A DNA stretch of 64,000 bases from a virus, in IMG/VR virus record IMGVR_UViG_3300029935_000002, positions 4,397-68,396 of that record, one strand, 5' to 3'. The notes beneath the pieces are model-generated. The model was not told the origin of the DNA, made no database searches, and saw nothing but the letters and a program-made list of their open reading frames with translations. The position numbers and the translations under genes are program-made. Positions within the stretch are counted from its first letter, which is position 1, and each line of letters starts with the position of its first letter. Below, one piece after another: positions 3,705-32,965 of this stretch.

Positions 3705-3744
3705 GATTTGAGTGCTCCTGAATAGGTTTTAATGGGTTTTAAGA

Positions 3745-6092: not shown

Positions 6093-9020
6093 ATGGACTT
6101 GACAAACTATAAACCCACTGCTATCTCGACCCTGAAAGATAAGTTTGGTTCGGCACGCTATGACCCAACCATGCTTATTAAAGCAGAGATTGAAACTGTA
6201 CAAGAAATCACAAATGGCAAAACCATGCTCGTGGACGCCACGAACCCCATGGTCATGCTTATGGAAATGGCTGCTGTGCTCTCAGCTAACTGTATCCAAG
6301 AAAACCAAGTTCTTCTCAGAAAGCAATATCCTTCACTCGCCATGAATGAAGAAGATATCTATCTTCACATGAGTGACGAAGACTATCTGAATCGATTTGC
6401 TTCGCCTGCTACAGGTCAGTTTGTCTTTGGACTTCAAGTTCAAGACATGATGCGTCAGATGGTTTTTGATCCAGCTGAGAATGCGTATAAGTTAATTATT
6501 CCGAGAGATTCTACCATTGTTGTCGATGGTGTCACATTTACACTACTGTATCCAATTGTAATTCGTCGCTATGAGAATGGGGCTGTTCAGATTAGCTATG
6601 ATCCTTCTATCAAGAATCCTGTCTTTACCTTAAAGAATACAATCATCGATTATAGTGTTCGAAGGGGTGCTTCTTTAGAAGATTGGATCTTCTTTAATCT
6701 AAGTGCCGAACAGGTTCAGATTACACCCAGTTATTTTGTCATCGATAAGACGTATAATTTCCGTAAGGAGATTGTTCTTATCGATCAGTTCTATTACGCG
6801 CGTGCTTTTTATAAGAATGAAAATACGTTAGGTCAGTGGGTTGAAGTGCTTACGACCCATACAGACCAAGTATTTGATGTCTCTAAGCCTACAGTGGTCT
6901 TTAAGGTCTTAGATGGTAGCTTGGTCGTTCAGATTCCAGTTGTCTATTTAACCACTGGTGTTTTGTCCGGTGAGCTCCGAGTCGATGTCTATACAACAAA
7001 GGGTTCGATTTCTTTAAATCTTCAAAACTATCGTCAAGATGCTTTTGAAGTGACACTTAAAGCGATTGATGAAGTTCGTGACCTGAACAAGTATACCGAA
7101 GCCATGTCTGGGGTTTCTTTTTACGCCTATAGCTTTGATACTGTTACAGGCGGAAAGAATCAGCTTGACTTTGAAACACTAAGAGAACGCGTCATCTATA
7201 ACTCAGTCGGTCCTCAGAATCTACCGATCACCAATATTCAATTGTCTGCTGAAGCCGAGAATAACGGCTTTGAGATCGTCAAAAACGTCGATGTTTTAAC
7301 AAACCGTGTTTTCTTAGGGACACGTAAACTTCCTACACCGTCAAATGAAAAACTGATTACGCCTGCAAACATCGGCATTGTCACTTTTACGACGAAACTT
7401 GAAGATATTAAAGACCATTATAACGTTAGCCATAATTTAGAGCGTCTAACCGTTCACTCTAAGTCTATTTGGCTTAATCAAAATAGTCAGCTAAGTTTAG
7501 TAGGTCGTGCTGAGATTGATGCGCTAAACGCCATGAATCAGACAGCGATGGTAAGTAAGATCAATACGTCTCAGTACTTCTATACGCCATTTTACTATGT
7601 CCTCGATGCTAGCGGAGATGAGTTTGAAGTGCGTGCGTATGCACTCGACCAGCCCTATGCTAAGGATCTGAACTTTATTCGACAAAACCAGACACTTCAA
7701 CTTTTTGTCAACACCGCAACATATGAGCTTACAAAAACACCTTCTGGTTTTGTATTGAGAGTCATCACTCGTTCTGGCAACTATTATCGTCAAATGGATA
7801 ATAACCAGGTTGGAATTCAGCTGGCTTTTAATCCCAAGGGTGAAACAACCTACGCTTACATTAACGGAGAAATTGAATCTGTTAATGAGGAAGGTGAGCG
7901 CATTTATAAGTTTGAGATTAAGTCTAATCATGACCTTGATCAAAATAACTTAATTTGCATCACCAACAGCACAGTACAAGGTATTACTGACTATAAAGCC
8001 TGGATTGATCTTGAAACCACTTTTAAACTGATTCACCATACTTCGTCTGTGACACAGAACTTTATTGCTGATGAAACGGATCAGATTGTGGGTAAGTTTA
8101 TGTTGTCTGATGGTAGCGTCGGTAATAGTCTAGAAGAATTGACGCTTCACTTTGGAGATGCATTAAGTAATCTCTGGAGAAGGTCGCGCTCTTATAAGAC
8201 TGATCGTCTATATCGAACCCATCAAGTCGATGTCCCATTACTGTATGAACATGATGTCTTTGATATTGACCCCGTTACAGGCAGTATCTTTAAGTTTACT
8301 ACTGAAGGTGAGATGGAATATCTCTATAAACATCGCCAAGGGGATCCTGTTCTTGATGAAGAAGGCAATCCTGTCTTTAAATATAAAGCAGGTGACGTCA
8401 TGCTCGATGAGAATGGAGAACCTATCTTTGATGTTAATCTGTCTACAGGTCGAGAGATGGACCTTCTTGTAGTCGATGGTCGTTATCTCTTTGCTAACGA
8501 TACAGCAACGATTCAGTATCGTCGAGAGATTGAAGAGACTTTGGTGAGCTGGATCACCGATGATATCACCGATCTTCAAACACGGCTTCTTGAACAAACC
8601 CGTATCTTCTTCTATCCGAAGACCACGCTGGGTGTGATTCAGGTCTATACAGAAAATGGTGGAGAAGACTATCTCTTTGCCGAACAAGCTTTTACCATCA
8701 GTCTTTATGTGAAGTATGCCATTTATAATGACCCTGAGATTCGTGAGACGCTAAGGAACTCAACGGTGAGGCTCCTTGATACGTACATTGGTCAGCAGAC
8801 GATCAATATGACTGAGATCTTTGGAGAACTTCGTGAACTTTATGGTGAATCGGTTTCTGCTTTCCAGATTCAAGGACTGGGCGGAGATCGTAATTATCAG
8901 TTTGTTCGTGTTGCTTCTGAGAAGAATAAACTTTGTCTCCAAAAGCAACTCATTATTCAGGCTGATAAGAGCATGATTGTGGAAGATGCAGTTACAGTTG
9001 AATTTAAACTTGTAAGTTAA
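6093..9020 (+). CDS. Baseplate wedge-like structural protein (phiKZ gp87-like position, 975 aa)
   Basis: NPMVMLMEMAA and GGKNQLDFETLRERVI segments resemble baseplate-J/gp6-type motifs; size and synteny. Confidence 0.55.
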   Translation: MDLTNYKPTAISTLKDKFGSARYDPTMLIKAEIETVQEITNGKTMLVDATNPMVMLMEMAAVLSANCIQENQVLLRKQYPSLAMNEEDIYLHMSDEDYLNRFASPATGQFVFGLQVQDMMRQMVFDPAENAYKLIIPRDSTIVVDGVTFTLLYPIVIRRYENGAVQISYDPSIKNPVFTLKNTIIDYSVRRGASLEDWIFFNLSAEQVQITPSYFVIDKTYNFRKEIVLIDQFYYARAFYKNENTLGQWVEVLTTHTDQVFDVSKPTVVFKVLDGSLVVQIPVVYLTTGVLSGELRVDVYTTKGSISLNLQNYRQDAFEVTLKAIDEVRDLNKYTEAMSGVSFYAYSFDTVTGGKNQLDFETLRERVIYNSVGPQNLPITNIQLSAEAENNGFEIVKNVDVLTNRVFLGTRKLPTPSNEKLITPANIGIVTFTTKLEDIKDHYNVSHNLERLTVHSKSIWLNQNSQLSLVGRAEIDALNAMNQTAMVSKINTSQYFYTPFYYVLDASGDEFEVRAYALDQPYAKDLNFIRQNQTLQLFVNTATYELTKTPSGFVLRVITRSGNYYRQMDNNQVGIQLAFNPKGETTYAYINGEIESVNEEGERIYKFEIKSNHDLDQNNLICITNSTVQGITDYKAWIDLETTFKLIHHTSSVTQNFIADETDQIVGKFMLSDGSVGNSLEELTLHFGDALSNLWRRSRSYKTDRLYRTHQVDVPLLYEHDVFDIDPVTGSIFKFTTEGEMEYLYKHRQGDPVLDEEGNPVFKYKAGDVMLDENGEPIFDVNLSTGREMDLLVVDGRYLFANDTATIQYRREIEETLVSWITDDITDLQTRLLEQTRIFFYPKTTLGVIQVYTENGGEDYLFAEQAFTISLYVKYAIYNDPEIRETLRNSTVRLLDTYIGQQTINMTEIFGELRELYGESVSAFQIQGLGGDRNYQFVRVASEKNKLCLQKQLIIQADKSMIVEDAVTVEFKLVS

Positions 9021-9022
9021 AC

Positions 9023-9056
9023 CATAGAGAGGAGGGCAGACGCCCTCCTCTCTATG
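9023..9056. terminator. Bidirectional terminator-like hairpin
   Basis: CATAGAGAGGAGGGC-agac-GCCCTCCTCTCTATG, 15-bp perfect stem between convergent genes. Confidence 0.75.
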
Positions 9057-9061
9057 TAGTC

Positions 9062-10207
9062 TTAGTATTTTTGATCTAGAACATTACGGCAAGCGTTCAT
9101 ATAAGCCTGTGCATAATGACAGAACCACCGCGCGGCATTAAGATGTCGATAGTACTTTGTCAAGCCACGCAGATATGCTCTAACCCGTGGCAAGAGTTCT
9201 TCAATCTGACTGAGTTTTTCTTCAATAGTACCTTCGCTCAGGATCAACTCAAGCTTAGGATAAATGTCTTCTTGGATAGCTAACATCTCTTCATTTGTGG
9301 CCTGAAGATAAGTTCCAAGACGATTCTCTGCAAAGCATGAAAGCAGTGACAGATAATCAAAAGAAACAAAGGCATCGCTGTCTTTCTGATATTCTTTTAG
9401 GAGTTCTTCATTTTGTCGATGGACAAAGATCTGAGCAGAACGATAAAGGTCTCTGAACTCAACGCTATTAAAAGAGTCAAATAAACCTTTAATAATAGCT
9501 TTCTTAGGGAAAGCTTCCGGGATATTATCAAACTCGCTATAGTCTAAGCCACTGTGAATCATTCGAACTCTAAAATCAACCAGTTCATTTCTGGTATTGT
9601 AGAGTAGGAAGTTACGAGACTGACTTGCTCTCTGAAGATCAAGAAGGGCTTCGTGATTCAGTTGTTCAAGAAGCTCTGCTGTCTGAGGATAGCGTTCATC
9701 TACAATACAGTTCAAAAGGAGTTGTGCTTCTTTTGCTTCGGTATTGATGAACTGAATAAAAGTATTCAGAACTTCCTGTTGTTCTTTCTGATATTCCGAC
9801 TGAACAAAGTTTTGAGATGCTTTTAGATGTGTCTTTGTTGGAACTTGAGTAAACTCATTACTCGGTGCAACGACCTCTGAAAAAGATTCAAAGACGCGAT
9901 TGAGTTCTTCTGCGGTCGATTGACTAATTGTTTCAGATGACAACACAGTATCCGTGATCTCATCGAGACTATGAAGTCGACTAATACCATCTTCAGTTGT
10001 TTGAAGGGCGGTGTCGTAGTCTTGAAGAACGATCATGGATTTAACCATGGCTTCATCATCTTCAGCCGGTTCAACCTTGACAATTGCACGATCTTTAATT
10101 TGATCGTCAATTTCAGGTTCTTTAATAAAAGAAGCTTCTTGATCCAATTCGTCTAAGGCTTCGGCATTAAGCGACATAGTGATCGGTTTCCTTCGGTTGA
10201 TCAGCAT
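9062..10207 (-). CDS. Putative head protein (381 aa; true start may be MSLNAE)
   Basis: Acidic N-terminus, helical body; head gene cluster. Confidence 0.5.
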   Translation of the reverse strand: MLINRRKPITMSLNAEALDELDQEASFIKEPEIDDQIKDRAIVKVEPAEDDEAMVKSMIVLQDYDTALQTTEDGISRLHSLDEITDTVLSSETISQSTAEELNRVFESFSEVVAPSNEFTQVPTKTHLKASQNFVQSEYQKEQQEVLNTFIQFINTEAKEAQLLLNCIVDERYPQTAELLEQLNHEALLDLQRASQSRNFLLYNTRNELVDFRVRMIHSGLDYSEFDNIPEAFPKKAIIKGLFDSFNSVEFRDLYRSAQIFVHRQNEELLKEYQKDSDAFVSFDYLSLLSCFAENRLGTYLQATNEEMLAIQEDIYPKLELILSEGTIEEKLSQIEELLPRVRAYLRGLTKYYRHLNAARWFCHYAQAYMNACRNVLDQKY

Positions 10208-10682
10208 TGATCAGCTTATCTTGATGTTCTTTCATATCAGACATTAGACGCTGAAGACCACTGATGAGCTGCGTCAGTTTTTCAGCATTTTCTTTGATGT
10301 CACAGATTGTCTCTTCGGAGATACACTGCGTTAAACCGAAGAAGTCTTCAAGAGCATGATCTTCACGCAGCGCCAGCGGGATCTCAGGCGGGTTCATCGC
10401 ACGATAACGAAGACGATAGAAACCAAGCACCAGTTCTTTAGCTGCCTTTGCGTCAAAGGGTGTCAGTTCATTAATTTTATCAAGCTTAGCGAGCGTCATC
10501 TGCTCATGCTGAAGTCGATAGTATTGTGTCAGATCTTCAACCTTCTCAACCGGTAAAGGTAAAGACTGCGCGACAACGTAAGCAGCTGCAATCACAAAAC
10601 ACTTACTGCGATTGGTTGAGAATGAAGAAACCCGACCTACAAATTCAATCGAGGGCTTAGAGAGGGAAGAAATACCGTACAT
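10167..10682 (-). CDS. Hypothetical virion-cluster protein (171 aa)
   Basis: ORF with AGGA RBS in operon. Confidence 0.5.
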   Translation of the reverse strand: MYGISSLSKPSIEFVGRVSSFSTNRSKCFVIAAAYVVAQSLPLPVEKVEDLTQYYRLQHEQMTLAKLDKINELTPFDAKAAKELVLGFYRLRYRAMNPPEIPLALREDHALEDFFGLTQCISEETICDIKENAEKLTQLISGLQRLMSDMKEHQDKLINADQPKETDHYVA

Positions 10683-10704
10683 TTTGTTTTATCCTTGAAA
10701 AAGA

Positions 10705-12033
10705 TTAAGCTTTCAAACTGAGTTCTGCAGATTTGACAAAGAGTTCATTAGAAGCCAAAGCTTCCATGAGTTGCTGTTCTTTAATGGAGGTAGCTACCTG
10801 ACGTGCGCCTGAAAAGATAAAGTTTGAAATAACTGAAGGAAGTGTTCTGACAACAGCTGTTGACTTAATTGCTTCATCGATAGTGTATATGCTATCTAGC
10901 ATTTGTTTAACCACTTCTTTATCTTCTTTGATTTCTTTAAGCTGATCAATCATATCTTGACGAACACGAAGATATCGAAGTTTAAGATCATCATAGGTAT
11001 AGTCCCTGTAATCTTCTCTTGACAGTAAGAAAAAGAGATGAGTATAGAAACCAAATATAATAATCCCCAATACGTTTGCTGCAAGGACTGTTATTCCTAA
11101 GAAGAAACACAACACCAAAAGCAAAGAAGCATTAAGAAGGTGTACAAACGTCCGAGCGACTATATTTTTCTCATCTGATCCAGCTGAAAGCTTCTCAAGT
11201 GAAAGAATTAGTGGTTTTCCATAACCAAAGCGAGAAGCGAAGTTATCAGCTCTTTGTTCAAAGGCTGTTTCATTGTACGTATCGTCAGTCGTTTGAGTAC
11301 GAACAATTTCAGAGATAACTTTGAAGAATGCGGCGCCAGCAACAGTCCGAGGACCATTTAACATTTTATCAATTTCTTCTTTTGGAATCTTAGAAGAAAC
11401 CTTTGAGAGTTCTCGATAGACGTATTCGATATCGCCTGTTTCATTTGCATGAAGGTGACGAACAACGCCTGCTAGAACTTGATTAGTTCTGTCAGTTCTA
11501 TCACTATAGTAACACGCATAGAATGCGTGGCCGAGTTCATGCAACACCACTGCGGCGATCTCGGCTGAACTGAGTTTAAACTCTCCAATGAGCGTATGAA
11601 AGTTTAAATAAAGCGGATGGTCATATTCACTAAAGATCCCGCCAACTGTTGCCTTTTCTAAGTTAACGAAACCTTTCTTTTGATCAAGCTGTTTAAGAAG
11701 CTTATTTTGATCAGCAAGATTAGGGCGACCTCTAAAGATTTCATTCAAAAAGATGTGATTCTTATTTGAATAAAAAGGCATGATGGCTGCAGGGGCCAGA
11801 TGCGTAACGACATGAACTTTAAGTTTAAAGCGATCAAAGATTGCCTTCTCTAGACTTTTAATGAGTTCATGGTCTTTAAGACTCTTTGCACTCTTTATTG
11901 TCTTATTCTCAATAACTTTCGCAATATTAGTAACGATAGCTTCGATCTGAGCACCAATATCATCAAACTGAGTTCGAATTGATTCGGTTGCAAAGATAGG
12001 TGGAGCGCTTCGGTGGTTAAGTTGAAATTCCAT
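10705..12033 (-). CDS. Zn-metallopeptidase-like (HEXXH, M48-type) membrane/virion protein (442 aa)
   Basis: VVLHELGHAF, EQRADNFASRFGYG..L..SLEKL, long hydrophobic stretch near C-terminus, N-terminal ATE-S site. Confidence 0.65.
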   Translation of the reverse strand: MEFQLNHRSAPPIFATESIRTQFDDIGAQIEAIVTNIAKVIENKTIKSAKSLKDHELIKSLEKAIFDRFKLKVHVVTHLAPAAIMPFYSNKNHIFLNEIFRGRPNLADQNKLLKQLDQKKGFVNLEKATVGGIFSEYDHPLYLNFHTLIGEFKLSSAEIAAVVLHELGHAFYACYYSDRTDRTNQVLAGVVRHLHANETGDIEYVYRELSKVSSKIPKEEIDKMLNGPRTVAGAAFFKVISEIVRTQTTDDTYNETAFEQRADNFASRFGYGKPLILSLEKLSAGSDEKNIVARTFVHLLNASLLLVLCFFLGITVLAANVLGIIIFGFYTHLFFLLSREDYRDYTYDDLKLRYLRVRQDMIDQLKEIKEDKEVVKQMLDSIYTIDEAIKSTAVVRTLPSVISNFIFSGARQVATSIKEQQLMEALASNELFVKSAELSLKA

Positions 12034-12148
12034 GATTTTAAAAGCCCTAATGGTTAAAAGTGTCCCGTCAGGAGATGAAGTGACAGCGCTCCTAGTCCGC
12101 TATACGATTTCGCTTTAAACGCTTATACTGCTTTCAAGGAAAGACTTC

Positions 12149-13894
12149 ATGGCAAACGCAGCACCTGAAATAAAGGCTCGAGAATGCCGATTTGCAGTCC
12201 ATATTCCGACTCGTTCTTCTGATATTCCAGACTACCATCTAGTCAAAGAGATTCTTCATTTTGATAATGGCGACATTAAACCCAATGTTCGCTTTATTAA
12301 GGATTATAAGAGAACGTTCTATCTCACGAAGAAACCCTATCAAAATCACCAACAAAAGAAAGAATACGAGACTTTTGATAAGCTGCATCGTTATGAATGC
12401 ACACAGTCTGAGATTCGAATCAAAGTCGCTAAAGCGCTAGATAAAGCATGGTCTAATGCAAATCTACGTCAGCTGGCTGAGTCACCTTATCTTTACGGCT
12501 CAGACATCTCAAGTACCTCGATTATTAAGCAAGAGTATCGTCAGCAGTGGCCAGATACCGTTACACCCTATCGCGTTAGCTTCTTCGACATTGAAACAGA
12601 TGTTGTCCATGGTACTAATGATCCGATTCTTGCAACCTTAGTCTTTGAAGATACGATTCTGACGATTGCTCAAACTTCGTTTGTAAAAGGGTATTCGGAA
12701 CCGCATGAGCGCCTGGAAACTCTTCTTAAGAAGTATCTGAAACCTTACATGGATAAGTATCAGTTTAAGATGGACTTTCGGATTGTAGAAGGACCTGTTG
12801 AGCTGATTAAGGAAGTCTTTAGCACAGCGCATAAGTGGTCACCTGACTTTCTAGCGATCTGGAACATGGACTTCGACATTCCACGTATTATCGAAACACT
12901 TGAGAAATACGGGGTTGATCCAAAGACGATCTTTAGTGATCCTAAGCTTCCGGCCGCATTACAGTTTTGTAAGTATAAGAAAGGCTCTACCAAGAAAGTC
13001 ACCGCTTCAGGTCAAGTCAAACCTAAGAACCCTTCGGAACAATGGCATAGTCTATATTGCCCTGCTGGTTTCTATGTCATTGATGCAATGTGTACATATC
13101 GCTTTGTACGTCAAGGGGAACAAGAAGAACCTGATTACAAACTCGATAGTATCTTGAATAAAGAATTAGGGGTTCGTAAGCTCACCTTTGAAGAAGCCAA
13201 TGACTATCATGAGCTTGAATGGCACAAGTTCATGCAAGAACGCTATCCCTTTGAATACATTGTTTATAACATCTTTGACTGCGTTGGGATGCTAGAACTT
13301 GAGAATAAGACGACTGACCTTTCTCAAGCCCTTCCTGTTCAATGCAACATCACAGACTTTGCACGATATAATTCTCAAACTAAGCGTTTTGCAGATCGCT
13401 ATCATTTCTTTCTATTAGAACGTGGTAAGGTAATTTCAACGATTCCGCCTGCTGAAGAGAAAGATCCGACTGCTGAAGCTGATGGTGAAGAGGATAGTGA
13501 TGAAGTTATTCTAAATGCTGATGATGACGAAGATATCAGTAAGAAAAACGAAGTCTTAGGTTTAAAGGCATGGATTGTGACTCTTCCTGCCCATATGACC
13601 GTATTGGGTCGAAGATGCATTGCAGAGAATCCGAATCTCCATACTTTAATACGCGGTATGGTCTATGACTCTGATGCGGTTTCGGCGTATCCGAGCTGTA
13701 CCGCTGTTGCCAATGTGTCTAGAGAAACCACAGTTCGAGAAATCATTGACATCTTAGGTGTCGATGAGACAGCCTTTAGAAGGCACAATATCAATCTTCT
13801 CCAAGGTCACGTGAATGCCTTAGAGTATGCGTGTGAAATGCATGGCTTACCTACACCTCAAAACGCACTCCAGTACTTTGAAGATCTAGTTTAA
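12149..13894 (+). CDS. Split family-B DNA polymerase, exonuclease + motif A subunit (phiKZ gp82-like, 581 aa)
   Basis: Exo I FFDIETD, Exo II WNMDFDIP, Exo III YNIFDC, pol motif A YDSDAVSAYPS. Confidence 0.85.
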   Translation: MANAAPEIKARECRFAVHIPTRSSDIPDYHLVKEILHFDNGDIKPNVRFIKDYKRTFYLTKKPYQNHQQKKEYETFDKLHRYECTQSEIRIKVAKALDKAWSNANLRQLAESPYLYGSDISSTSIIKQEYRQQWPDTVTPYRVSFFDIETDVVHGTNDPILATLVFEDTILTIAQTSFVKGYSEPHERLETLLKKYLKPYMDKYQFKMDFRIVEGPVELIKEVFSTAHKWSPDFLAIWNMDFDIPRIIETLEKYGVDPKTIFSDPKLPAALQFCKYKKGSTKKVTASGQVKPKNPSEQWHSLYCPAGFYVIDAMCTYRFVRQGEQEEPDYKLDSILNKELGVRKLTFEEANDYHELEWHKFMQERYPFEYIVYNIFDCVGMLELENKTTDLSQALPVQCNITDFARYNSQTKRFADRYHFFLLERGKVISTIPPAEEKDPTAEADGEEDSDEVILNADDDEDISKKNEVLGLKAWIVTLPAHMTVLGRRCIAENPNLHTLIRGMVYDSDAVSAYPSCTAVANVSRETTVREIIDILGVDETAFRRHNINLLQGHVNALEYACEMHGLPTPQNALQYFEDLV

Positions 13895-14001
13895 GGTATA
13901 GTGTGGTTGATGTGCGTTGTCGGCGCTTAGGCGTGGATCTGAGATGTTTGTGGTGACATCTCAGTTAACATCAGCTGGTATGTGGATTGCCTCCTTCTCT
14001 T

Positions 14002-14069
14002 GAGAGACTCCCCTTAAGGGGAGTCTCTCTCTTTTATCAAAAAAAAAAAAGAGAGGGATAAACCCTCTC
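14002..14069. terminator. Back-to-back terminators separated by an A12 run
   Basis: GAGAGACTCCCC-ttaa-GGGGAGTCTCTC then T-rich tail (plus strand); GAGAGGG-ataaa-CCCTCTC with poly-U on minus strand. Confidence 0.75.
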
Positions 14070-14073
14070 CTTA

Positions 14074-14310
14074 TCAAGCAAAAGCTTCAACGCTTTCTTG
14101 GATTTCAAGAATATCGGACAGAGTGACTTTATTCTTGATAGTGAAAAGCTCAACCAGCATTTCATGGGTGCGATAGCTGCACAGAAGTTTGGCAGCTTCA
14201 ATGAAAGTCATACCAACATTACACAGCTTTTCCATCAGTTGAACTTCTTGATCGATATCAGCTTTAGTGATTTCACCAATCAGATCGCTGTTATATTCAA
14301 AGTTTTCCAT
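14074..14310 (-). CDS. Small hypothetical early protein (78 aa)
   Basis: RBS GGAGAAAATC-ATG; downstream of the 14598 motif. Confidence 0.7.
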   Translation of the reverse strand: MENFEYNSDLIGEITKADIDQEVQLMEKLCNVGMTFIEAAKLLCSYRTHEMLVELFTIKNKVTLSDILEIQESVEAFA

Positions 14311-14419
14311 GATTTTCTCCGTTCAATGGAAAGTGAACCTAAGTGAGAGTAGGCTCAAGACTCTTTTAAATCCTCTCGTTAGAATAGGACTTAAAGATGG
14401 GTTCTATAGAAGAACCCAT

Positions 14420-14539
14420 TTACTTATTAACCATGACTGTAAAGCTTTTCGTCAGTTTAACATCGAGCGTTTCAGTTGAAGCACTCATCGCAACCGGAAT
14501 AGCGATCACTACCAGGATCGTGATAATGACGTATTTCAT
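14420..14539 (-). CDS. 39-aa hydrophobic peptide (not in ORF track)
   Basis: AAGGAGAAACATC-ATG; MKYVIITILVVIAIPVAMSASTETLDVKLTKSFTVMVNK. Confidence 0.6.
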   Translation of the reverse strand: MKYVIITILVVIAIPVAMSASTETLDVKLTKSFTVMVNK

Positions 14540-14597
14540 GATGTTTCTCCTTAAACAAAGTTAGATATAAGTACAGGGTATGTACTATAGTCAAGTT

Positions 14598-14615
14598 AGA
14601 TATATATGACTGAAA
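14598..14615 (-). promoter_or_regulatory. Conserved 18-bp promoter-like motif, copy 1
   Basis: TTTCAGTCATATATATCT (minus strand), identical at 29268-29285 and 61804-61821. Confidence 0.7.
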
Positions 14616-14632
14616 TTTTTCATATGCAGACA

Positions 14633-14666
14633 ACACAGACTCGAGGGGCACCCCTCGAGTCTGTGT
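14633..14666. terminator. Long hairpin upstream of motif copy 1
   Basis: ACACAGACTCGAGGG-gcac-CCCTCGAGTCTGTGT, followed by a CTGTGTCAAT direct repeat. Confidence 0.7.
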
Positions 14667-14679
14667 CAATCTGTGTCAA

Positions 14680-15561
14680 TTAGACAGCGTAAAACTTCTT
14701 CAGGTTATCAACCGCTTTCTGGCTGATGACATCAGGCGCAATCTTATCGATCATGATCGTCTTGATATCGTGCTTACGGGTATCTTTATTACGCGTAGCA
14801 CGAAGCAGCGTGATCAGGTTGCGGTAAGCATTGCAGCGCTCTTCGCCCTTATTCCAAGCAAAGAGGAAACGCGTCGTGCTATACTCAGACAGAGCCGTGT
14901 ATTCAGACGGCGTGCTGCGGCCATGGTGAAGGCCAAAGTAAACCAGCAACACATTCCAACCTGCGCGGAAGACATCATAATCTTTTTCAAGAATCCACAG
15001 CAGATGCTGAAGGAACTCATACTGATAGCGAACACCCTTATCTGGCTCAATAACCGTCTTCGGGCGAAGGTTCTGGACAAAGGTCTCAATAGCTGCAAGC
15101 ATGCGTTTTTGCTCAACCGTACCTTCAACCCGGATCTTCTCCAGATACTGCTCTTCTTCAGTGAGTTCACGCGGCGCTTCAGTTGAAGTCGCAGGCTCAG
15201 CTTTAACAGGTTCTTGCTCTTCAACGACTTCGGGCTTTACTTCGACAACTTCTTGAACCGGTTCTTCGACTTCAGGGGCCGGAGCTTCAGCCGTCTCAGT
15301 CACTTCAACAGCAGGTTCTTGAGTAACCACAGTCTCAGTAACCACAGCTTCTTCGTGAGCCGGTGCTTCTTCAACGGCAACGGCCTCAGTTACAGGCACT
15401 TCAGCTGCCGTCGTTTCCGTTACCGTTTCCTCAACATCTTGCTCAACCGCTTCAGGGTTTTCAAGGGGTACTTGTTGAGTTTCTTCTACTTGAGCTTCTT
15501 GGTTCGTTTTTTCCATTGCTAATTTCTCCAGTCTACGAAGGCGTTTTGATTTAACAGTCAA
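14680..15561 (-). CDS. Hypothetical protein with E/V/P/T-rich disordered N-half (293 aa)
   Basis: Low-complexity acidic repeats then globular C-terminal domain. Confidence 0.7.
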   Translation of the reverse strand: MTVKSKRLRRLEKLAMEKTNQEAQVEETQQVPLENPEAVEQDVEETVTETTAAEVPVTEAVAVEEAPAHEEAVVTETVVTQEPAVEVTETAEAPAPEVEEPVQEVVEVKPEVVEEQEPVKAEPATSTEAPRELTEEEQYLEKIRVEGTVEQKRMLAAIETFVQNLRPKTVIEPDKGVRYQYEFLQHLLWILEKDYDVFRAGWNVLLVYFGLHHGRSTPSEYTALSEYSTTRFLFAWNKGEERCNAYRNLITLLRATRNKDTRKHDIKTIMIDKIAPDVISQKAVDNLKKFYAV

Positions 15562-15591
15562 GGCAATGACTCCTTACTAATAAGGAATATT

Positions 15592-16392
15592 TTAAGTTTG
15601 ATAAGAAGACACTTGTTCAGGCTTCATACTTTCAAGGTAGACATTTAAACGCTGTTCTGCGCTCGGATTACCCAGATTGAAGATTGGAATACCAACAGCT
15701 GACGCAATAGCGATTGGATGTCCTGTAAAGCCCGAACGTGAAGTCTTTTCCTTAATGGACTCCACACCATCTTCAGTCCAACACAAAAGAAAGAGCGCTG
15801 GAGAGTTCACTTTATCACCCATGACCAGTCGAGCATTCTTTGCAAGAAAGAGCTGAACTGACTTCTTCATGGTGTCAAAGGTCGGATGGAACATCTTGGC
15901 GATCGCCATAGCGCGATCAGTCGTAAAGGTAAACTTAGATTGCTTTTGAGCAAAGTCACGCCAAGGAAGATGGATTTCATTCTTCGTTGTCGCTTTCTCA
16001 ACAGCTTCTTCAATACCTTCAAAACCACCCACACGTGCAGTATAGCCCAATGCTTCTAGTTTCTTTGCAATGGCTTCAAACTTACTAATGATCTCAGGCG
16101 GTGCATCTCTGTTACCTGTGGCCGCATATGGCTTGTAGAGCGACATATCTGTTTCTTTGGGACGCTCCCAGTTCTTCTTCTGACCGTTCCAGGGCTTCTT
16201 TTGCCCATCCCACTGTTTCTTCTGGCCATCCCAGGGTTTTTTCTGAAACCCTTCATTGCTTTGGTTTTGCCAGTGGTTATTTTGGCTTTGATTCTGGCCA
16301 TAGTTGTTATTATCACCATAGCGTGTACCGCTTTGGTATTGGTTATCGTGTTGTTCTTGCCCAGGATAACTCGGGAAAGTTGTACCGTTCAT
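15592..16392 (-). CDS. SLOG (DprA/YpsA-like) domain protein with Q/N-rich, repeat-containing N-terminus (266 aa)
   Basis: YAATGNRDAP / RVGGFEGIE / LLCWTEDG / GFTGHPIAIA..IPIFNLG match the phage SLOG pattern; W[DN]GQKK repeats. Confidence 0.6.
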   Translation of the reverse strand: MNGTTFPSYPGQEQHDNQYQSGTRYGDNNNYGQNQSQNNHWQNQSNEGFQKKPWDGQKKQWDGQKKPWNGQKKNWERPKETDMSLYKPYAATGNRDAPPEIISKFEAIAKKLEALGYTARVGGFEGIEEAVEKATTKNEIHLPWRDFAQKQSKFTFTTDRAMAIAKMFHPTFDTMKKSVQLFLAKNARLVMGDKVNSPALFLLCWTEDGVESIKEKTSRSGFTGHPIAIASAVGIPIFNLGNPSAEQRLNVYLESMKPEQVSSYQT

Positions 16393-16402
16393 TTTTAATA
16401 TC

Positions 16403-17770
16403 CTAAGTGATCACGCTTGCTAGATTCATCTCTTCCGTAACAAGCGCTGTATTGTGCATGAGCTTTAGACTGTCTGTCAAAATACCACCACTGACCTCCA
16501 TCAACGGGATAGGGAGACCTGTGGGAAATTTAGACAGTGCTTTTCCGGCACAGACTTCGCAAGTCTGTGTACCTAATCTTCTACAGTATTGAGGGCTTCT
16601 AACAATAAGATTTTGAGAAGCATAAGGTTTTGCTTGATCGATGGTTTCAATCAAGACTGGCTGCCCCTTCACAATCAAGTATCGTCCTACGATATTAGAG
16701 AGCTCTTTTTCAGTATAGAATCGACGAATACCGAGCTGACTTCCACAATCGCCTTCGGTGATTCGCCAATTATCAGCTGCGCGCATTAGTGCTTTAGCAG
16801 TTACACCACCATTAACAGTCTCAGAGCCTCGAGAGAACGAACCATATCGAATTGTATTTGAGATCGCTGTAAAGCCTTCTTCGTCGAGCGGAATCCCATC
16901 TTCAAGTGCGTTGATAATGGGTGTTACTGTCATGCTCTGAACAAAGCTATTAGACTCACCACCTTGAGTCATGTAAGCTTTCATTCGAGAATTGGCTACC
17001 TTCCCACTCATGAACTTACCATAAGAAGGATCTTTCTTAATGTACTCTGTATCGAAAGCTTTAAGTTCAGCTTCGAACTTGGCCATCTCTACAGGGTCAT
17101 GAAGTTTGCCTTCATACTTCTTTAAGAGTTCCTTCTTAAACTCTTTTCGACCGGGTGCTGGAAGAAGACCAATCTCCGTGATCGAGTGCGTAAAGATCTG
17201 ACTAAGGGTTTCAAGGAAAGAAACCCCTTCACAATACTTAAGATATTCATCAACATAGTAAAGAGAAGGATCTTTAGCTTGACCTTGTTTAGGGTTACTT
17301 TGAAGTTTTAAAGCAATTTCATCTTCAAGTTTACGGGGGCTAAATGAGCCAGCCTTATAAGGAAACTTCTCTCCAAAGGCTTCATAGAGACAAATAAGGT
17401 TTACTAGAAGTGTTCCGATAGATGTTTCTAGTTTTGCTTCATTTAAAGACGGAACCCAGTCAGGCGTGATGACAATCCGGTCTTTAACATGGAAAAGAGG
17501 CTGATTTAACGGACGATCAGATTTAATCTGGACCTTCTCACCGTCTTCTGTATAGGTAAATAGACCAAAGGGTTCTCGGATCAGTTTACCTGGATATTGC
17601 TGCTCTCTTTGTTTTTCGGTTTCTTGCGTAACAGCAAAGCAACTAATAATCCAAGCTTTCTTCTTATAGTTCTTATTCTGGATACTAAATTGAAGATACT
17701 CGTTTGGCGACATCTTGAGCCTCTTGATAGTGGTGAAGTTCATTGAGGAGCGCACCCATCTGAGTCTCAA
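16403..17770 (-). CDS. RNA polymerase beta-prime-type subunit (virion RNAP, phiKZ gp80-like; true start probably 17713, MSPNEY)
   Basis: WRITEGDCGS and VRSPQYC...TCEVCAG Zn-binding motifs of the beta-prime C-terminal region. Confidence 0.8.
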   Translation of the reverse strand: MRLRWVRSSMNFTTIKRLKMSPNEYLQFSIQNKNYKKKAWIISCFAVTQETEKQREQQYPGKLIREPFGLFTYTEDGEKVQIKSDRPLNQPLFHVKDRIVITPDWVPSLNEAKLETSIGTLLVNLICLYEAFGEKFPYKAGSFSPRKLEDEIALKLQSNPKQGQAKDPSLYYVDEYLKYCEGVSFLETLSQIFTHSITEIGLLPAPGRKEFKKELLKKYEGKLHDPVEMAKFEAELKAFDTEYIKKDPSYGKFMSGKVANSRMKAYMTQGGESNSFVQSMTVTPIINALEDGIPLDEEGFTAISNTIRYGSFSRGSETVNGGVTAKALMRAADNWRITEGDCGSQLGIRRFYTEKELSNIVGRYLIVKGQPVLIETIDQAKPYASQNLIVRSPQYCRRLGTQTCEVCAGKALSKFPTGLPIPLMEVSGGILTDSLKLMHNTALVTEEMNLASVIT

Positions 17771-18572
17771 TGCGCATGCGTTGTTCGCTATCTAAGACCA
17801 AAGACTCACTATAGGTCCGATAGATTTGTAAGGGGTCTTGATAGGTGTCTTGCGCCATCAAGAATAAAGACAAAAGATTCTTAGCGCTTTGAACATCTTC
17901 TTCTACGATCAAGTATTCCCTAACATAGGGGTAGTAGAGCTTGATTGGATGCCCGATCGAGATCCCGCTTTGAATAAATTCAAAGGCAAGATTGTCTTGA
18001 CCACAGATCGAGAAGAAGTCTTTTAAGTTTGACTGAATCTGATTTAAAAGGCTAGGATCAATTTCAGGTTCTTTTTCTTCCCTATCTTCCTGAGCATAGA
18101 GGAAAGATTGAAGTTGTTCAAGCGTTGAAGGGTGAATGCTTTCAATTGCGACGAGGACAGAAGCTTCATCGAGTTCACTATAGACTTCAATAATCTTAGC
18201 GATCTTTTCTTCATCTGAAAAGGAAGATTCTAGAATTCTTAAGACAGGAACAGCATCTTCAAGCTGCTGAAGACGGAAAAGCACAGACAGAATCTGATTC
18301 TTAGTGCTGAGCTCAACATTTTCACTCAAGTCAATTTGATGTGCTTTAAAGATAACGTCAACTTGTTCATGAATAGCTGACAAGAACTTCAGTTGAGTGA
18401 GGTCAGTGTTATCTGCATCAATGTCTAAGACAATATCAGGAAGATGAACATAAGCTTGACGATGTTCAAATGCATCAAAGAGTGAAAAACTATTTTGAAT
18501 CTCAGCTTGGAGTTCTTCTGAGAATGTCTGAGCAATGTAGCCGTGGACTACATCCATGAGGTCTTCATCCAT
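17685..18572 (-). CDS. Conserved hypothetical protein (295 aa)
   Basis: Long acidic helical ORF co-oriented with RNAP subunit. Confidence 0.6.
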   Translation of the reverse strand: MDEDLMDVVHGYIAQTFSEELQAEIQNSFSLFDAFEHRQAYVHLPDIVLDIDADNTDLTQLKFLSAIHEQVDVIFKAHQIDLSENVELSTKNQILSVLFRLQQLEDAVPVLRILESSFSDEEKIAKIIEVYSELDEASVLVAIESIHPSTLEQLQSFLYAQEDREEKEPEIDPSLLNQIQSNLKDFFSICGQDNLAFEFIQSGISIGHPIKLYYPYVREYLIVEEDVQSAKNLLSLFLMAQDTYQDPLQIYRTYSESLVLDSEQRMRIETQMGALLNELHHYQEAQDVAKRVSSI

Positions 18573-18749
18573 GACCTGAAACCTTTTTTATCTGAATGTG
18601 TGAAAAATCTTAGAAGTTGCTCAATCTGTATGAACGCGAGTCGGCGCGTATCCGACAGTAGACCATACGACAACTTCATCAGTTTGCCACACGATTGTTG
18701 GCATCTCTTTAAATTCTTTTTCAATTTATTTTAGTAGGAGCCTTAGATC

Positions 18750-19301
18750 GTGGCAAAACGAAACAAACATACTCTGACATCTGAAGAAAATGTGAAGATG
18801 CTGTTTCCTAAGCCGGTAGCGGCAGTGGTTGGTGATCTTTTTCATAATGCACCTCAGACGATTGTGACTGAAGGGGATCCGAATAATATCCCTAAGCAGT
18901 CATGGGAGCAACTGTCCGATATCTCGATTGCCATTGGTGAAAGTATCGCACAGATGGCCAGTGATATTCATACTACCGTCGAAATGGTTAAACAACTTGG
19001 CTGTGACCATATTCGTGAGTTTAATGCGGTTGTTGAAAAGACCAATAATGATTTTCAAAAGTTTATTGTGGATTATGAAAAGATTCGGGCACGCCATATT
19101 GGAAAGTCGGGCTTTATTGAATCCAGTCAAGATCTAGCACTTTCACTATCTGTTTTTGAAGACTATCAGCAGTTCCGAGCGTTCTTCGATGGCGCAATGC
19201 ATCACACGCTGATCTCCTTTACTGAATACGCCCTTGAAGCAAAAGACCGCGCACTTAAACTTCAAGCCGAGCAAGCAGAACAATCTGAAAAGAGCGAGTA
19301 A
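18750..19301 (+). CDS. Hypothetical protein (183 aa, GTG start)
   Basis: AGGAG RBS, coupled to next gene. Confidence 0.65.
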   Translation: MAKRNKHTLTSEENVKMLFPKPVAAVVGDLFHNAPQTIVTEGDPNNIPKQSWEQLSDISIAIGESIAQMASDIHTTVEMVKQLGCDHIREFNAVVEKTNNDFQKFIVDYEKIRARHIGKSGFIESSQDLALSLSVFEDYQQFRAFFDGAMHHTLISFTEYALEAKDRALKLQAEQAEQSEKSE

Positions 19302-26319: not shown

Positions 26320-27474
26320 ATGACCGATCCTAATATCCTACTGTCCAAATGCTTGACCCTTTTGTATCGTGAGTCACAGCTCGAGAATAATACAGAAAAT
26401 AGCTCAGACCTCATCCGAACCACCGTTGAAAAACTCAAGATCAACGATACCGTAATCGGTATCCCAACACGTCGAGATGCTTCATTGGCTTTGAAGTTCT
26501 TAGTGCTAGAGATGTGTCGAAATGGCCCTGAGCATACGTACGATGCACACGAGCTGCTTCAGCAGATTCGGATTATTACAAATGGCGATGAGAATCTTTA
26601 TACTGCCATCGCACAAGGGATTGAGACCGAGCTCAATCCGACAATGCTTAAAAGAACCATCACCAATATTCGAAAGACGGTTTCTAACTACTTTCGAGAA
26701 CAAAGAATCTCTGAAATCGTCAGCAAAGCCAATCGAGATTTAAGCTTTGGACGTCATAACATTTCAGACCTGAGTCAATACATTCGAAATTTGATCTTAG
26801 AACTTGAGATTACCTCTTCTAAGTCCGTCGCTAAAGATCCTGCTATTGTTAAGACCATGGACTTAGGTGATGATAATTCTCTAAAAGAAGTTTTTGAGAA
26901 TGTCGCAAGTTCAAATTCAGAAGACTTGGCTTTTGCTACAGGTTGGCGTGAGTTAAACGAAGCGCTTCAGGGTGGTCCTCGTCCTGGAGACACCATGGTC
27001 ATTGGTGCACTTCAGCATAACTATAAGACAGGCTTCTCATTGTCGATGTTTGCTCATATGGCTGTTTATAATAAACCCAAGACAAAAGATCCCAATAAGA
27101 AGCCTTTGATGTATCGGGTTACTTTTGAAGATCCGATTCGAAACAATGCTCAGTTTCTCTATCAACTTCTTAAGTATGACGAAACTAAGCAACCAATCGA
27201 TGTCAAAGGCGTCACGGTTGACGAGATGGTGCAGTATGTCAAGAAACGTCTCCAGGTCAATGGCTATCACATTCTAATGGATGAAGTCAATCCGTCTAAC
27301 TGGACATATCAGTCACTGATCAATCGTGTCATTGAACTGGAATCCCAAGGCTATGTGGTTGAAGTCTTGGCTGTGGATTACCTGATGAAGCTTCCTACAA
27401 CAGGATGCACTCAAGGATCTACCGGTGACGATGTCTTGGATATGTTGTCCAGGCTTCGAAACTATTGTTCTGCT
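26320..27474 (+). CDS. dnaB: DnaB-like replicative helicase, exon 1
   Basis: ATGWRELNEALQGGPRPG, Walker A GALQHNYKT, Walker B LAVDYL; ends ...LRNYCSA at the intron. Confidence 0.9.
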
Positions 27475-27855
27475 TAACATTTGTCAGGCCTCTGCATTAG
27501 TAATAATGCAGTTTGAATTCTCTGAATTGCGGGAAACCCCTAAAGCTGTCTCACCAAAGCGAAGTGTGAAAACACAGACGTCATGGTTTAAAAACGAGAC
27601 GGATGCGACATGATGTCAAAATGGGCAACCGTGGGTCCTAAGGACCCCTTTCGCAGCTAAGCACCTAACGCATGCGGGTGATCCGCGCCATGGTGAAAGT
27701 TCAACGACTAACCCTTTAGAAAGGTGTAGAGCCAAGCGGCTCGAAGCGGGGAACATCCTTTTAGGATGAAGATATAGTCTGTTCTGCATGGAAACATGCA
27801 GCGTTTGCAGGTCATGCTGCGGGATAGGAAGTCGCGAACCTATCTGAACAACAAG
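27475..27855 (+). ncRNA. Group I self-splicing intron (IA-type, P7.1/P7.2 present), 381 nt, no homing endonuclease
   Basis: P AATTGCGGGAAA (27525), Q TCGCAGCTAAG (27651), R GTTCAACGACTA (27699), S AAGATATAGTCT (27769); P3, P7, P8, P9 pairings; 5' exon ends in U, intron ends in G; removal restores the frame. Confidence 0.93.
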
Positions 27856-28233
27856 CACGGCATACTTTTCATAACACCACATCAGCTATCGACCGATGCA
27901 AAACGTCTTCTTCAAAATACGCCTCAAGAACAGTTCTTGCACGCCATTAAAGGTGGGGGTTTCTTTGAGAAGACAAAAGGTCTTGATAGAATCTACGATA
28001 TCGGCGTGCTAATTAACAAAGCTGAGACTCCAGCTGGAGACTTTTTACACGTAGTTATTGATAAACATCGATTCCCGACTGTGGTCGAATCATCTGCAAA
28101 GAGTTTTTATTTGGCTTTTCCAGCTTGTAAAGCTCCTATACCGTCAAATTTAGAAAATCCTGATCATAAAGTACTTCGAAGAATTCCAAGGTCAGTTGTC
28201 AGTAGAGACGATGATCTTTTCAAACTGAGTTAA
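27856..28233 (+). CDS. dnaB: DnaB-like helicase, exon 2 (spliced product about 510 aa)
   Basis: HGILFITPHQLSTDAK...LHVVIDKHRF are DnaB motifs H3/H4. Confidence 0.9.
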   Translation, partial: HGILFITPHQLSTDAKRLLQNTPQEQFLHAIKGGGFFEKTKGLDRIYDIGVLINKAETPAGDFLHVVIDKHRFPTVVESSAKSFYLAFPACKAPIPSNLENPDHKVLRRIPRSVVSRDDDLFKLS

Positions 28234-31072: not shown

Positions 31073-32965
31073 TTAACGCACGCCAAAACGCTGGGCACCA
31101 TAACGGTACGGTTGCTGAACACGTGCTGCACCATAGCCACTACCAAAGCTGCGCGTGCCGTGGGCCAGTGAGTTCTGGATGAAGCTCGGTGCAGCCACAC
31201 CCGTACGCAGCATGTCTGCATTGATCGGGGTGTTGACCTGAACCGGCAGGTTGCAGTCAGCAATAGCGCTGCTCAGGGCCAGTACGAAGCTGTCACTGAA
31301 CGAGACGCGAGCTGCGTAACCCGTGATCTCGGCTTGGTGATTCAGCACGTCCATGATCATGCCTTCACGCATGGCCAGGTTACGCGCCGACGAGACACCC
31401 GGACGTTCCACGAAGGTGTTGCTGTATTCGTGAATACGCTCAGGCTGGTTCTGGTACATGTTGGCAATGGCGGTGTAGTCTACGTTGCGGATATCGCAGA
31501 TACGACCTTCCGTATCACGATAATGACCCACCGGAACACGGATCACGTTGGTGAACATCGGATCGCCTTGCTTGAAGTAGCGCTGGAACCCATTGTTGGT
31601 GAGTTCATTGGCCGCAGCATAGATCTGGTTGTAAGCAGCTTGGTCACCCGACGCAGCTGCAGCAAACACAGACAGATACCACGACTGCGCACCCGCTTCA
31701 GGGCAGTCCATCGAGATCACGACGCCCGGACGGAAGATCGAGACCAGATACTTATTGATCTCAGCAATGTCGCCCTTGAGCGAAGCGATATCCATCGGCG
31801 TACCAAAACCCATCTTGTCCGTTTCACGGGCCAGGTTGGCCGTGATGTTCAGGGCGCCGATATCCGTGATGTCGATCTTCGACTTACCACCTTGGGGCGC
31901 GTAGCTGTTACCCTTAGGCAGGAAGGCCTGGATCCAGTTGTCGTTTTCAACCAGAGTCAAGAACGACGACACGGCCAACAGCACAGCAGCAGGCGACGTT
32001 GCATAGTCTGTACGCACCGAAGTGATCACGAACTCAGCAGCAAACTTCTGCGTCGGCTGAGGAACGTTCGGGTTCATGTAACCTTGGAAACCGTAGGCGT
32101 TCACGGGTTCGGTCGGTGCCCAGATGGGCTGAATGAAACCAGACATTTCGCAGATACGCGCAACCGCTTCAGCGACGTTCACGGTATCCAGACCCGCAAC
32201 CGACTGAGCCGTCTTCTTCTGGCTCGAATAGCTGATCAGGACCGAGCTACGCTGCGGGTTACCGACGACGTCATAGACTTGGTGATTGCCAAACGTCACA
32301 TCGAAGACGAAACGGCAGTCACGATCCATATAAGCCAGGTTCAGCTCACCGTAGTTATCGGTCACAGCGTTGATCACCGAGACGCAAGCCAGTGCGGCAT
32401 TACGAGCGATGTTCTCGATGGCATCCTTCATGTCAACTGCGATCGACGAAGGAACAACCATAGCGTCAGCCGGATAGACCGTGACGTTGGGGAACTCGGC
32501 CGTCACCGCATCATAAGCCGTCTTATACAGCACTTCGTCATAAGCGTCACCCGTAGTACGGTTGATCTTGACTTGCTGGTTGTCGATGTTACGGAATACC
32601 GGCTGCAGCTTCTCACCCGTGGCTTCCAGAATCAGGGTGTGGAAAGCCACTGCGTTACCGTTGACGCTGTTCATGCGGCAAGCCACGACCAGTGACGAGA
32701 AGCGCAGGCTGGGCATGTTCTGACGGTTCAGGGAGATGATACGAACTTCAACTCCTTCGACGATGTCCTTATAGATCTCGGTCAGAGACGTACGAAACTT
32801 CGTGAAGTACTCACCGCCCACGCCAGCAGCGACCGGGCTACCGATCAGACCTTGCTGATGGAACGACCACGGCTGACGGATCGCTTGTTGCGACTGCTGG
32901 TTCTGTTGCGCTTGCGGAGCGGCTTGTTGAGACTGGTTCGGTGCGTTGTTGTCGATGATTGCCAT
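31073..32965 (-). CDS. chmA: Chimallin, major phage nuclear shell protein (630 aa)
   Basis: Q-rich disordered N-terminus; SSLVVA, DVVGNPQRSSVL, VITSVR, DIGALN, GFQRYF match recalled 201phi2-1 gp105 segments (SSLVIA, DTVGNPIRADIV, VITDVR, DIGALG, GFERFF); size; near DNA pol; high-expression codon bias. Confidence 0.9.
   Translation of the reverse strand: MAIIDNNAPNQSQQAAPQAQQNQQSQQAIRQPWSFHQQGLIGSPVAAGVGGEYFTKFRTSLTEIYKDIVEGVEVRIISLNRQNMPSLRFSSLVVACRMNSVNGNAVAFHTLILEATGEKLQPVFRNIDNQQVKINRTTGDAYDEVLYKTAYDAVTAEFPNVTVYPADAMVVPSSIAVDMKDAIENIARNAALACVSVINAVTDNYGELNLAYMDRDCRFVFDVTFGNHQVYDVVGNPQRSSVLISYSSQKKTAQSVAGLDTVNVAEAVARICEMSGFIQPIWAPTEPVNAYGFQGYMNPNVPQPTQKFAAEFVITSVRTDYATSPAAVLLAVSSFLTLVENDNWIQAFLPKGNSYAPQGGKSKIDITDIGALNITANLARETDKMGFGTPMDIASLKGDIAEINKYLVSIFRPGVVISMDCPEAGAQSWYLSVFAAAASGDQAAYNQIYAAANELTNNGFQRYFKQGDPMFTNVIRVPVGHYRDTEGRICDIRNVDYTAIANMYQNQPERIHEYSNTFVERPGVSSARNLAMREGMIMDVLNHQAEITGYAARVSFSDSFVLALSSAIADCNLPVQVNTPINADMLRTGVAAPSFIQNSLAHGTRSFGSGYGAARVQQPYRYGAQRFGVR

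Follow-up and report, generated by a model that had tools for sequence, protein, structure and literature searches.

Introns are known from the polymerase genes of several chimalliviruses. The PhiPA3 vRNAP intron with gp210 is a group I intron with an HNH endonuclease (PMC11620839), further RNA polymerase introns have been described at PhiPA3 gp65-66 (PMC10643120) and at phiKZ gp72 and gp179 (PMC12676376), and Goslar has one in its DNA polymerase gene (gp068/gp069; bioRxiv 10.64898/2026.10.01.755736). One transcriptome study detected no splicing of the predicted phiKZ introns (bioRxiv 10.1101/2023.10.13.562163). A helicase intron in a chimallivirus is not mentioned in the literature searched, where RNA polymerase genes and the Goslar DNA polymerase gene are the only hosts; this fits what an earlier note on the present DNA had stated, namely that phiKZ-like introns lie in RNA polymerase genes with homing endonucleases, and adds the Goslar gene to it. 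Here we describe an intron in the replicative helicase gene of a phage of this group, found in a window of 64,000 nucleotides (the whole stretch of DNA analysed). Like the chimallivirus polymerase introns, it belongs to group I and sits in the gene of an essential nucleic-acid enzyme of a nucleus-forming phage, but those introns occupy other genes and sites and have their own HNH endonuclease, which the window's copy lacks. Over the 3' core, the window's intron and the RNA polymerase intron of PhiPA3 are 71.7% identical.

The td intron of T4 and other T-even phages (subgroup IA2, encoding I-TevI) resembles the window's intron in the layout of its core, P7.1 and P7.2 included, and is ~72% identical to it over 148 nt of P7-P9. 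It too has an early stop codon inside the intron and lies in a phage DNA-metabolism gene. The two differ in that the td host gene is thymidylate synthase and its GIY-YIG endonuclease lies in the P6 loop, whereas the window's intron is ORF-less and its relatives carry HNH genes in P1. Small group I introns that consist of the ribozyme alone, without an ORF, also occur in phage genes, Staphylococcus phage Twort being one example; they are regarded as derivatives of homing systems or as their passengers, and differ from the window's intron in host gene and subgroup details. The type of element is therefore a familiar one, while the helicase site itself is as yet undescribed in the literature searched.

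The source is an uncultured chimallin-encoding, phiKZ-like jumbo phage from wastewater or activated sludge. Alongside chimallin, the genes of the window include those for a major capsid protein of phiKZ type, a tail sheath and pieces of polymerases; they bear out the phiKZ-like phage with a nuclear shell that the earlier note implied, and since chimallin is encoded the nuclear-shell setting is justified. Elsewhere in the window, a 720-aa ORF (46917-49079) has two terminase large-subunit PHROG matches whose best-scoring stretches are its first 165-200 residues, and one of these matches has a second stretch as well. The features needed for what follows are:

26320-27474, plus strand: helicase exon 1; 385 codons, ending ...NYCSA; PF20307 positions 1-238 (E 1e-65), phrog_3213 positions 3-384.
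27475-27855, plus strand: group I intron, subgroup IA (td-like), no ORF; 381 nt; first codon in-frame TAA, last base G (omega-G); RF00028.
27856-28233, plus strand: helicase exon 2; 125 codons and stop, starting HGILFITPHQLS; PF20307 positions 241-330, phrog_3213 positions 386-505.
31073-32965, minus strand: chimallin, the phage nuclear shell protein; phrog_4795, E 3.8e-76.

The interrupted gene is a single-copy DnaB-like (divDNAB) replicative helicase, PF20307 being divDNAB, a divergent DnaB-like ATPase, and phrog_3213 a DnaB-like replicative helicase. In the list of open reading frames it appears as a 385-codon ORF (26320-27477) together with an in-frame continuation up to 28233. Taken together, exons 1 and 2 cover one family end to end in both profiles, with neither overlap nor gap. 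Exon 1 terminates in AAC TAT TGT TCT GCT at 27474 and is followed directly by an in-frame TAA at 27475; the helicase frame picks up at 27856 with CAC GGC ATA CTT TTC, so that the joined exons read ...LRNYCSA followed by HGILFITPHQLS. Two intron-less alleles show the same junction. A viral-contig scan with exon 1 recovered L005, which has no insert, matches the window's helicase in every one of the final 118 residues encoded by exon 1 (100% identity), and reads TGT TCC GCA/CAC GGT ATA, that is NYCSA/HGILF (the slash marks the junction here and below); a 510-aa intron-less protein, P0001, is 98% identical and agrees with the predicted junction. An insert placed one base further left would still leave Ala-His at the junction; since a group I intron follows a U at its 5' splice site and ends in G, the boundaries are fixed at 27475-27855, 381 nt. 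The earlier reading of an exon ending in TCT GCT, an insert of 381 nt running from TAA to G and a continuous DnaB sequence once it is removed is thus borne out by the sequence, by exons that abut in both profiles and by the intron-less alleles, for which that note had proposed a survey and of which L005 gives exactly the predicted NYCSA/HGILF.

The insertion point falls just ahead of an H3-like strand (ITPHQLS), between a helix and that strand, inside one ATPase domain. A phmmer search of the full-length helicase against PDB sequences returned no match, and the H3 placement accordingly follows from motif reading and Pfam profile coordinates. Megablast of the gene against cultured phages likewise gave no match, and the closest named helicases are just 30-42% identical to the window's.

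The insert matches Rfam RF00028 at 27460-27801 on the plus strand over the full model (1-253), with 71.5 bits (E 3.6e-16) against a curated gathering threshold of 50 bits; the covariance-model check that the earlier note had called for therefore agrees with it. This is the sole Rfam match in the window and the sole RF00028 match on the 72,962-base source record. No ORF of at least 60 aa lies wholly inside the intron, and Pfam found no family in the short frames overlapping it, of which one is 88 aa long on the minus strand, one 62 aa long on the plus strand, and one opens at ATG 27796; this sustains the description of an ORF-less group I intron in the helicase gene. Inteins are common in phage DnaB genes, and the insert length is a multiple of three. 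That the insert is an intein, a translational bypass element or a group II intron is nevertheless vanishingly unlikely, for its first codon is TAA, stops occur throughout, no protein family is matched in any frame and RF00028 has no competitor in Rfam; these readings are refuted outright by the in-frame stop codons together with the covariance-model match.

Homologues of the helicase show how widespread the interruption is. Among the best 120 homologues from a large protein search, lengths are two-peaked, with full-length proteins of ~505-516 aa and short ones of 384-388 aa; the latter number 24, and all terminate at the homologous residue (..R.FC.A/S/T/P). Our relatives comprise eight fetched contigs of such short helicases (L008-L015) and the viral contigs L003 and L004, ten in all, plus the cultured phage PhiPA3. 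A group I intron occupies the identical site in all eight fetched contigs, in L003, in L004 and in PhiPA3, even though the helicases of the ten contigs range down to 47% identity with the window's. RF00028, run on six of the relatives (L003, L004, L008-L011), matches each one at 61-90 bits. Exon 1 ends in ...CT and the first intron codon is TAA or TGA in 10 of 10 relatives, and the intron ends in ...AAG right before exon 2 in the nine contigs that include its 3' end (L012 stops before exon 2). The terminal G is found in all 11 complete introns at the site, window and PhiPA3 included. The gene order of capsid protein, small gene and helicase is common to every fetched contig, with chimallin close downstream in L008 too.

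Of the 60 cultured-phage records listed by tblastn with the full-length protein, PhiPA3 is the only one in which the match halts at residue 384. Its helicase (HQ630627, ~116.5-118.3 kb) is split at the same codon boundary into gp134 and gp131, the record annotating gp134 as 'putative helicase', gp133 as 'putative endonuclease' and gp131 as 'putative helicase'. The intervening intron scores 83 bits with RF00028, begins with TAA, ends with G and gives the junction NYTTP/RGITFISPHQL. PhiPA3, which is also nucleus-forming, thus shares with the window the divDNAB codon boundary and the guide logic of P1, but its helicase is ~30% identical to the window's, and its intron is 1790 nt long with a 474-aa HNH ORF in the P1 loop, where the window's is ORF-less with an extra hairpin in J5/4. 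That ORF (116871-118283, minus strand) is missing from the annotation in both GenBank and RefSeq, and what is annotated as the gp133 'endonuclease' overlaps the ribozyme core instead. No naming of the gp134/gp131 interruption as an intron was found in the literature searched.

The ribozyme fold was examined in an alignment of 11 introns at the helicase site, with ORF inserts removed and helices defined on the window sequence:

27472-27489, plus strand: P1; exon GCU and intron U1 (27472-75) pair with guide AGGC (27486-89); minimal loop of 4 nt.
27492-27511, plus strand: P2 hairpin; 8 bp, GUAA loop; 6/8 pairs compensatory.
27518-27524, plus strand: P3 5' strand; partner 27747-27753; 4/7 pairs compensatory, 97% of cells paired.
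27527-27656, plus strand: P4, P5 and P5 extension; P4 27527-32/27651-56, P5 27537-39/27623-25, P5a 27546-52/27596-602.
27633-27647, plus strand: extra J5/4 hairpin; 6 bp, UAA loop; unique to the window's copy.
27662-27695, plus strand: P6 and inner hairpin P6a; P6 27662-65/27692-95; 3/4 pairs compensatory, e.g. CACC/GGUG versus CUCC/GGAG.
27706-27710, plus strand: P7 5' strand GACUA; partner 27775-27779; guanosine-binding helix; invariant in 11/11; Rfam consensus P7.
27713-27742, plus strand: P7.1 (27713-24) and P7.2 (27729-42); 3/4 and 4/5 pairs compensatory; marks of subgroup IA.
27747-27779, plus strand: P3 3' strand (27747-53), P8 (27754-68), J8/7 AAGAUA (27769-74) and P7 3' strand (27775-79).
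27784-27845, plus strand: P9 (27784-801, GAAA loop), P9.1 (27807-20) and P9.2 (27822-45); P9 6/7 pairs compensatory.

All helices of the conserved core are present (P3-P8 and P4-P6, the P3/P7 pseudoknot and J8/7). Across the 11 introns, compensatory changes occur in 39 of the 69 pairs and 88.8% of cells form standard pairs; when the 3' strands are displaced by 1-3 columns as a control, 37-43% are paired and only 10-21 pairs look compensatory. Several compensatory pairs back P8 likewise, while alignment gaps leave P9.1 and P9.2 with weaker support. Each helix that the earlier note had named, as well as J8/7 AAGATA, is found at the position it gave and is supported by covariation. Its assignment to subgroup IA also stands, given the covariation-supported P7.1 and P7.2 and a td-like 3' core: the last ~160 nt (P7-P9 core) are ~72% identical to the td introns of T-even phages and to the RNA polymerase intron of PhiPA3. 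The finer label IA2 would follow solely from similarity to the td core.

In P4 a G-C to U-A exchange is seen in L003 and L011, and in P5 a C-G to U-A exchange in relatives. The Rfam alignment gives P4 a different partner, CCGCG at 27684-88; we dropped it, since that hairpin is missing in L004 and both the alignment and covariation favour TCGCAG at 27651-56, the strand that the earlier note had chosen. When the intron or its P4-P6 domain was folded by minimum energy without constraints, the group I layout was not recovered, and the comparative analysis was used in place of these folds. A constrained fold was run for the P4-P5 region, and the internal shape that we infer for the ~85-nt P5 extension is a predicted one.

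At the 5' splice site, the U27474-G27487 wobble is invariant in all 11 introns, and the guide base opposite exon position -3 tracks the last exon codon, forming G-C with Ala GCU, C-G with Pro CCU, U-A with Ser UCU and A-U with Thr ACU. This covariation is direct comparative evidence that the ribozyme would choose this splice site. No convincing P10 pairing of the guide with the 3' exon was found. We regard 27475-27855 as very probably a genuine self-splicing group I intron, derived from a mobile family through what was likely the loss of an endonuclease, with its catalysis predicted from the family.

The membership in a mobile family is apparent from the loops of the relatives. In L009, L011, L012 and L014 an ORF of 470-475 aa begins ~60 nt after the intron's 5' end, takes up the P1 loop and stops within P2; these ORFs match HNH_3, NUMOD1 and, below threshold, also the I-HmuI NUMOD-like family. 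The 474-aa ORF of the PhiPA3 intron is 43% identical to them over its full length, and phiKZ gp72 is 27% identical to the helicase-intron endonuclease. L010 carries instead a 221-aa ORF in the P5 loop (3833-4498) that has a marginal Pfam match to DUF559 (E 0.05) and is of DUF559/Vsr type by eye, which points to a second, independent endonuclease invasion. In the ORF-less L013 the P1 loop (3653-3780) encodes a NUMOD1-like helix-turn-helix remnant, ..AARLSGLDTKTITKHLN.., that looks like the relic of a deleted HNH endonuclease gene. P1-loop extensions are intermediate in L004, L008 and L010 and come down to a bare 4 nt in the window and in L003.

Two histories could lead to the window's copy, which encodes no homing endonuclease. 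In one, the ORF-less state is the original, with a ribozyme that arrived at the site, or stayed on there, free of any endonuclease, and the P1 and P5 loops of other copies were invaded later and independently. Two unrelated nuclease classes in two loops (HNH in P1, DUF559/Vsr-like in P5 of L010) do show that independent invasion occurs, and the window's P1 is a clean 4-nt loop free of remnants; but L013 seems to have deleted its HNH gene and left a NUMOD1-like remnant, P1-loop extensions of intermediate length exist, and an HNH ORF in the same loop across helicases 30-67% identical to the window's, PhiPA3 included, suggests an old association. We therefore consider an original ORF-less state unlikely, if still worth keeping in mind. 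In the other history, which we prefer, the window's copy belongs to a mobile intron family and is ORF-less, most likely through endonuclease loss; because its P1 loop holds no remnant of the gene, loss in this particular lineage is something we infer rather than demonstrate.

Intron-bearing and intron-less alleles coexist with a patchy spread, the intron-less L005 and P0001 being 98-100% identical to the window's helicase in protein. In a helicase tree computed from the exon 1 part of the alignment alone (120 rows, 25 of them intron-bearing), intron presence requires 21 changes against a mean of 22.9 for shuffled labels, 68 of 500 shuffles needing as few as 21. At this sampling the intron appears scattered almost randomly, as rapid gain and loss would predict. 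The earlier note had reasoned that mobility would need a trans-acting endonuclease and had proposed a search for free-standing ones. Queries with the L009 HNH protein, with PF13392 for HNH_3 and with PF01541 for GIY-YIG found none on the 73-kb source contig, a result that holds for the ~27% of the genome that this contig covers and says nothing on absence genome-wide. Such an enzyme would most plausibly come from co-infecting relatives with the ORF-bearing form.

Comparison of the window with L003, both intron-bearing, gives pN 0.106 and pS 0.79 for exon 2 and pN 0.013 and pS 0.48 for exon 1. By this measure exon 2 is under purifying selection, and its translation in frame means that the exons are joined or, far less plausibly, that exon 2 has an independent start. 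The P5 extension (27537-27650) is only 36% identical to that of L003, the closest relative, while the remaining intron is 84-95% identical; this divergence and the unequal pS on the two sides of the intron (0.48 versus 0.79) point to a probable mosaic produced by recombination.

The window's copy has one feature that could speak against its activity. An insert of ~21 nt in J5/4 (27629-27650, GGGTCC-TAA-GGACCC) forms the extra hairpin and is absent from 10 of the 10 other aligned introns; this joiner normally assists P1 docking, and the hairpin could impair catalysis. If the intron were dead or crippled by such a unique insertion in a core joiner, the helicase would be a pseudogene, or else two separate polypeptides with a start at ATG 27796, from which an ORF (27796-28233) does run in frame into exon 2. 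Against these readings stand the intact core, guide pairing and terminal G, the persistence of the same variant in samples from 2015-2025 and the purifying selection on exon 2 in intron-bearing alleles. A separate start is opposed by the position of ATG 27796 within the P9 stem, with no ribosome-binding site by eye, and by the differing places at which genes called over exon 2 begin in relatives, and a helicase in two polypeptides would have its break within a single ATPase domain, where a helix is followed by the H3-like strand. We judge such an outcome very unlikely and hold to a working intron.

Public sequence runs add to this picture. The very sequence variant of the window, with its J5/4 hairpin, turns up again in independent wastewater and sludge runs from several studies dated 2015 to 2025, and this recurrence argues for a viable lineage. 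Four public runs, three of them probably DNA, were examined as contigs. Runs X8 and X9 hold the intron-less allele (TCCGCA/CAC). Run X11 has the exact 27474/27856 joint, but the run is probably DNA and intron-less DNA alleles exist, so the joint is not assignable to RNA. In the metatranscriptome X16 a 281-nt contig covers 27529-27809 with 0 mismatches, including the J5/4 hairpin and reaching neither exon; it is compatible with a stable excised intron and does not count as evidence of splicing. Contig depth in wastewater runs leaps to ~9,000-19,000 at 27755-27799, over the J8/7-P7-P9 core, which shows that this conserved stretch is common to numerous further group I introns in the same samples.

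We propose the following course of events. The pre-mRNA would fold so that the exon end GCU and intron U1 pair with the guide AGGC in P1, with the U27474-G27487 wobble, a pairing taken from the family as a whole. Free guanosine bound at P7 would attack after U27474, and the freed exon end would then attack after the terminal G27855, joining GCU to CAC. The product would be a helicase of ~510 aa reading ...NYCSA-HGILFITPHQLS, and on unspliced RNA translation would stop at TAA, the first intron codon. The intron belongs to a mobile family specific to one helicase codon boundary, in which relatives including PhiPA3 carry an I-HmuI-like HNH/NUMOD1 gene in the P1 loop and from which the window's copy most likely lost its endonuclease. 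As an ORF-less copy it could spread only by ordinary recombination or with the endonuclease of a co-infecting relative.

For annotation, the consequence is that this helicase is called as a truncated 384-aa protein in about one fifth of metagenomic relatives (24 of the best 120), and that in PhiPA3 it is split into gp134 and gp131 with the intervening 474-aa endonuclease left unannotated. The current understanding of group I introns is unchanged. A further idea, which we put forward as a speculation with a low chance of being right, is that this essential helicase mRNA, transcribed in the ribosome-free shell, may have to splice without help from translating ribosomes, much as in a eukaryotic nucleus, that the intron might act as a checkpoint linking helicase supply to GTP level or to RNA export, and that the J5/4 hairpin is perhaps a handle for a phage factor; if true, the intron would do more than ride along selfishly. 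The nuclear shell limits the access of an endonuclease to a rival phage's DNA (Birkholz 2024, PMC11620839). At a single codon boundary, the helicase gene offers every stage of the homing cycle, from empty sites through HNH introns, a second nuclease class and a decayed remnant to clean ORF-less introns. The site thus provides, ready-made in nature, orderly material for following the turnover of introns in nucleus-forming phages, and PhiPA3 is a ready laboratory system for locating where such introns are spliced.
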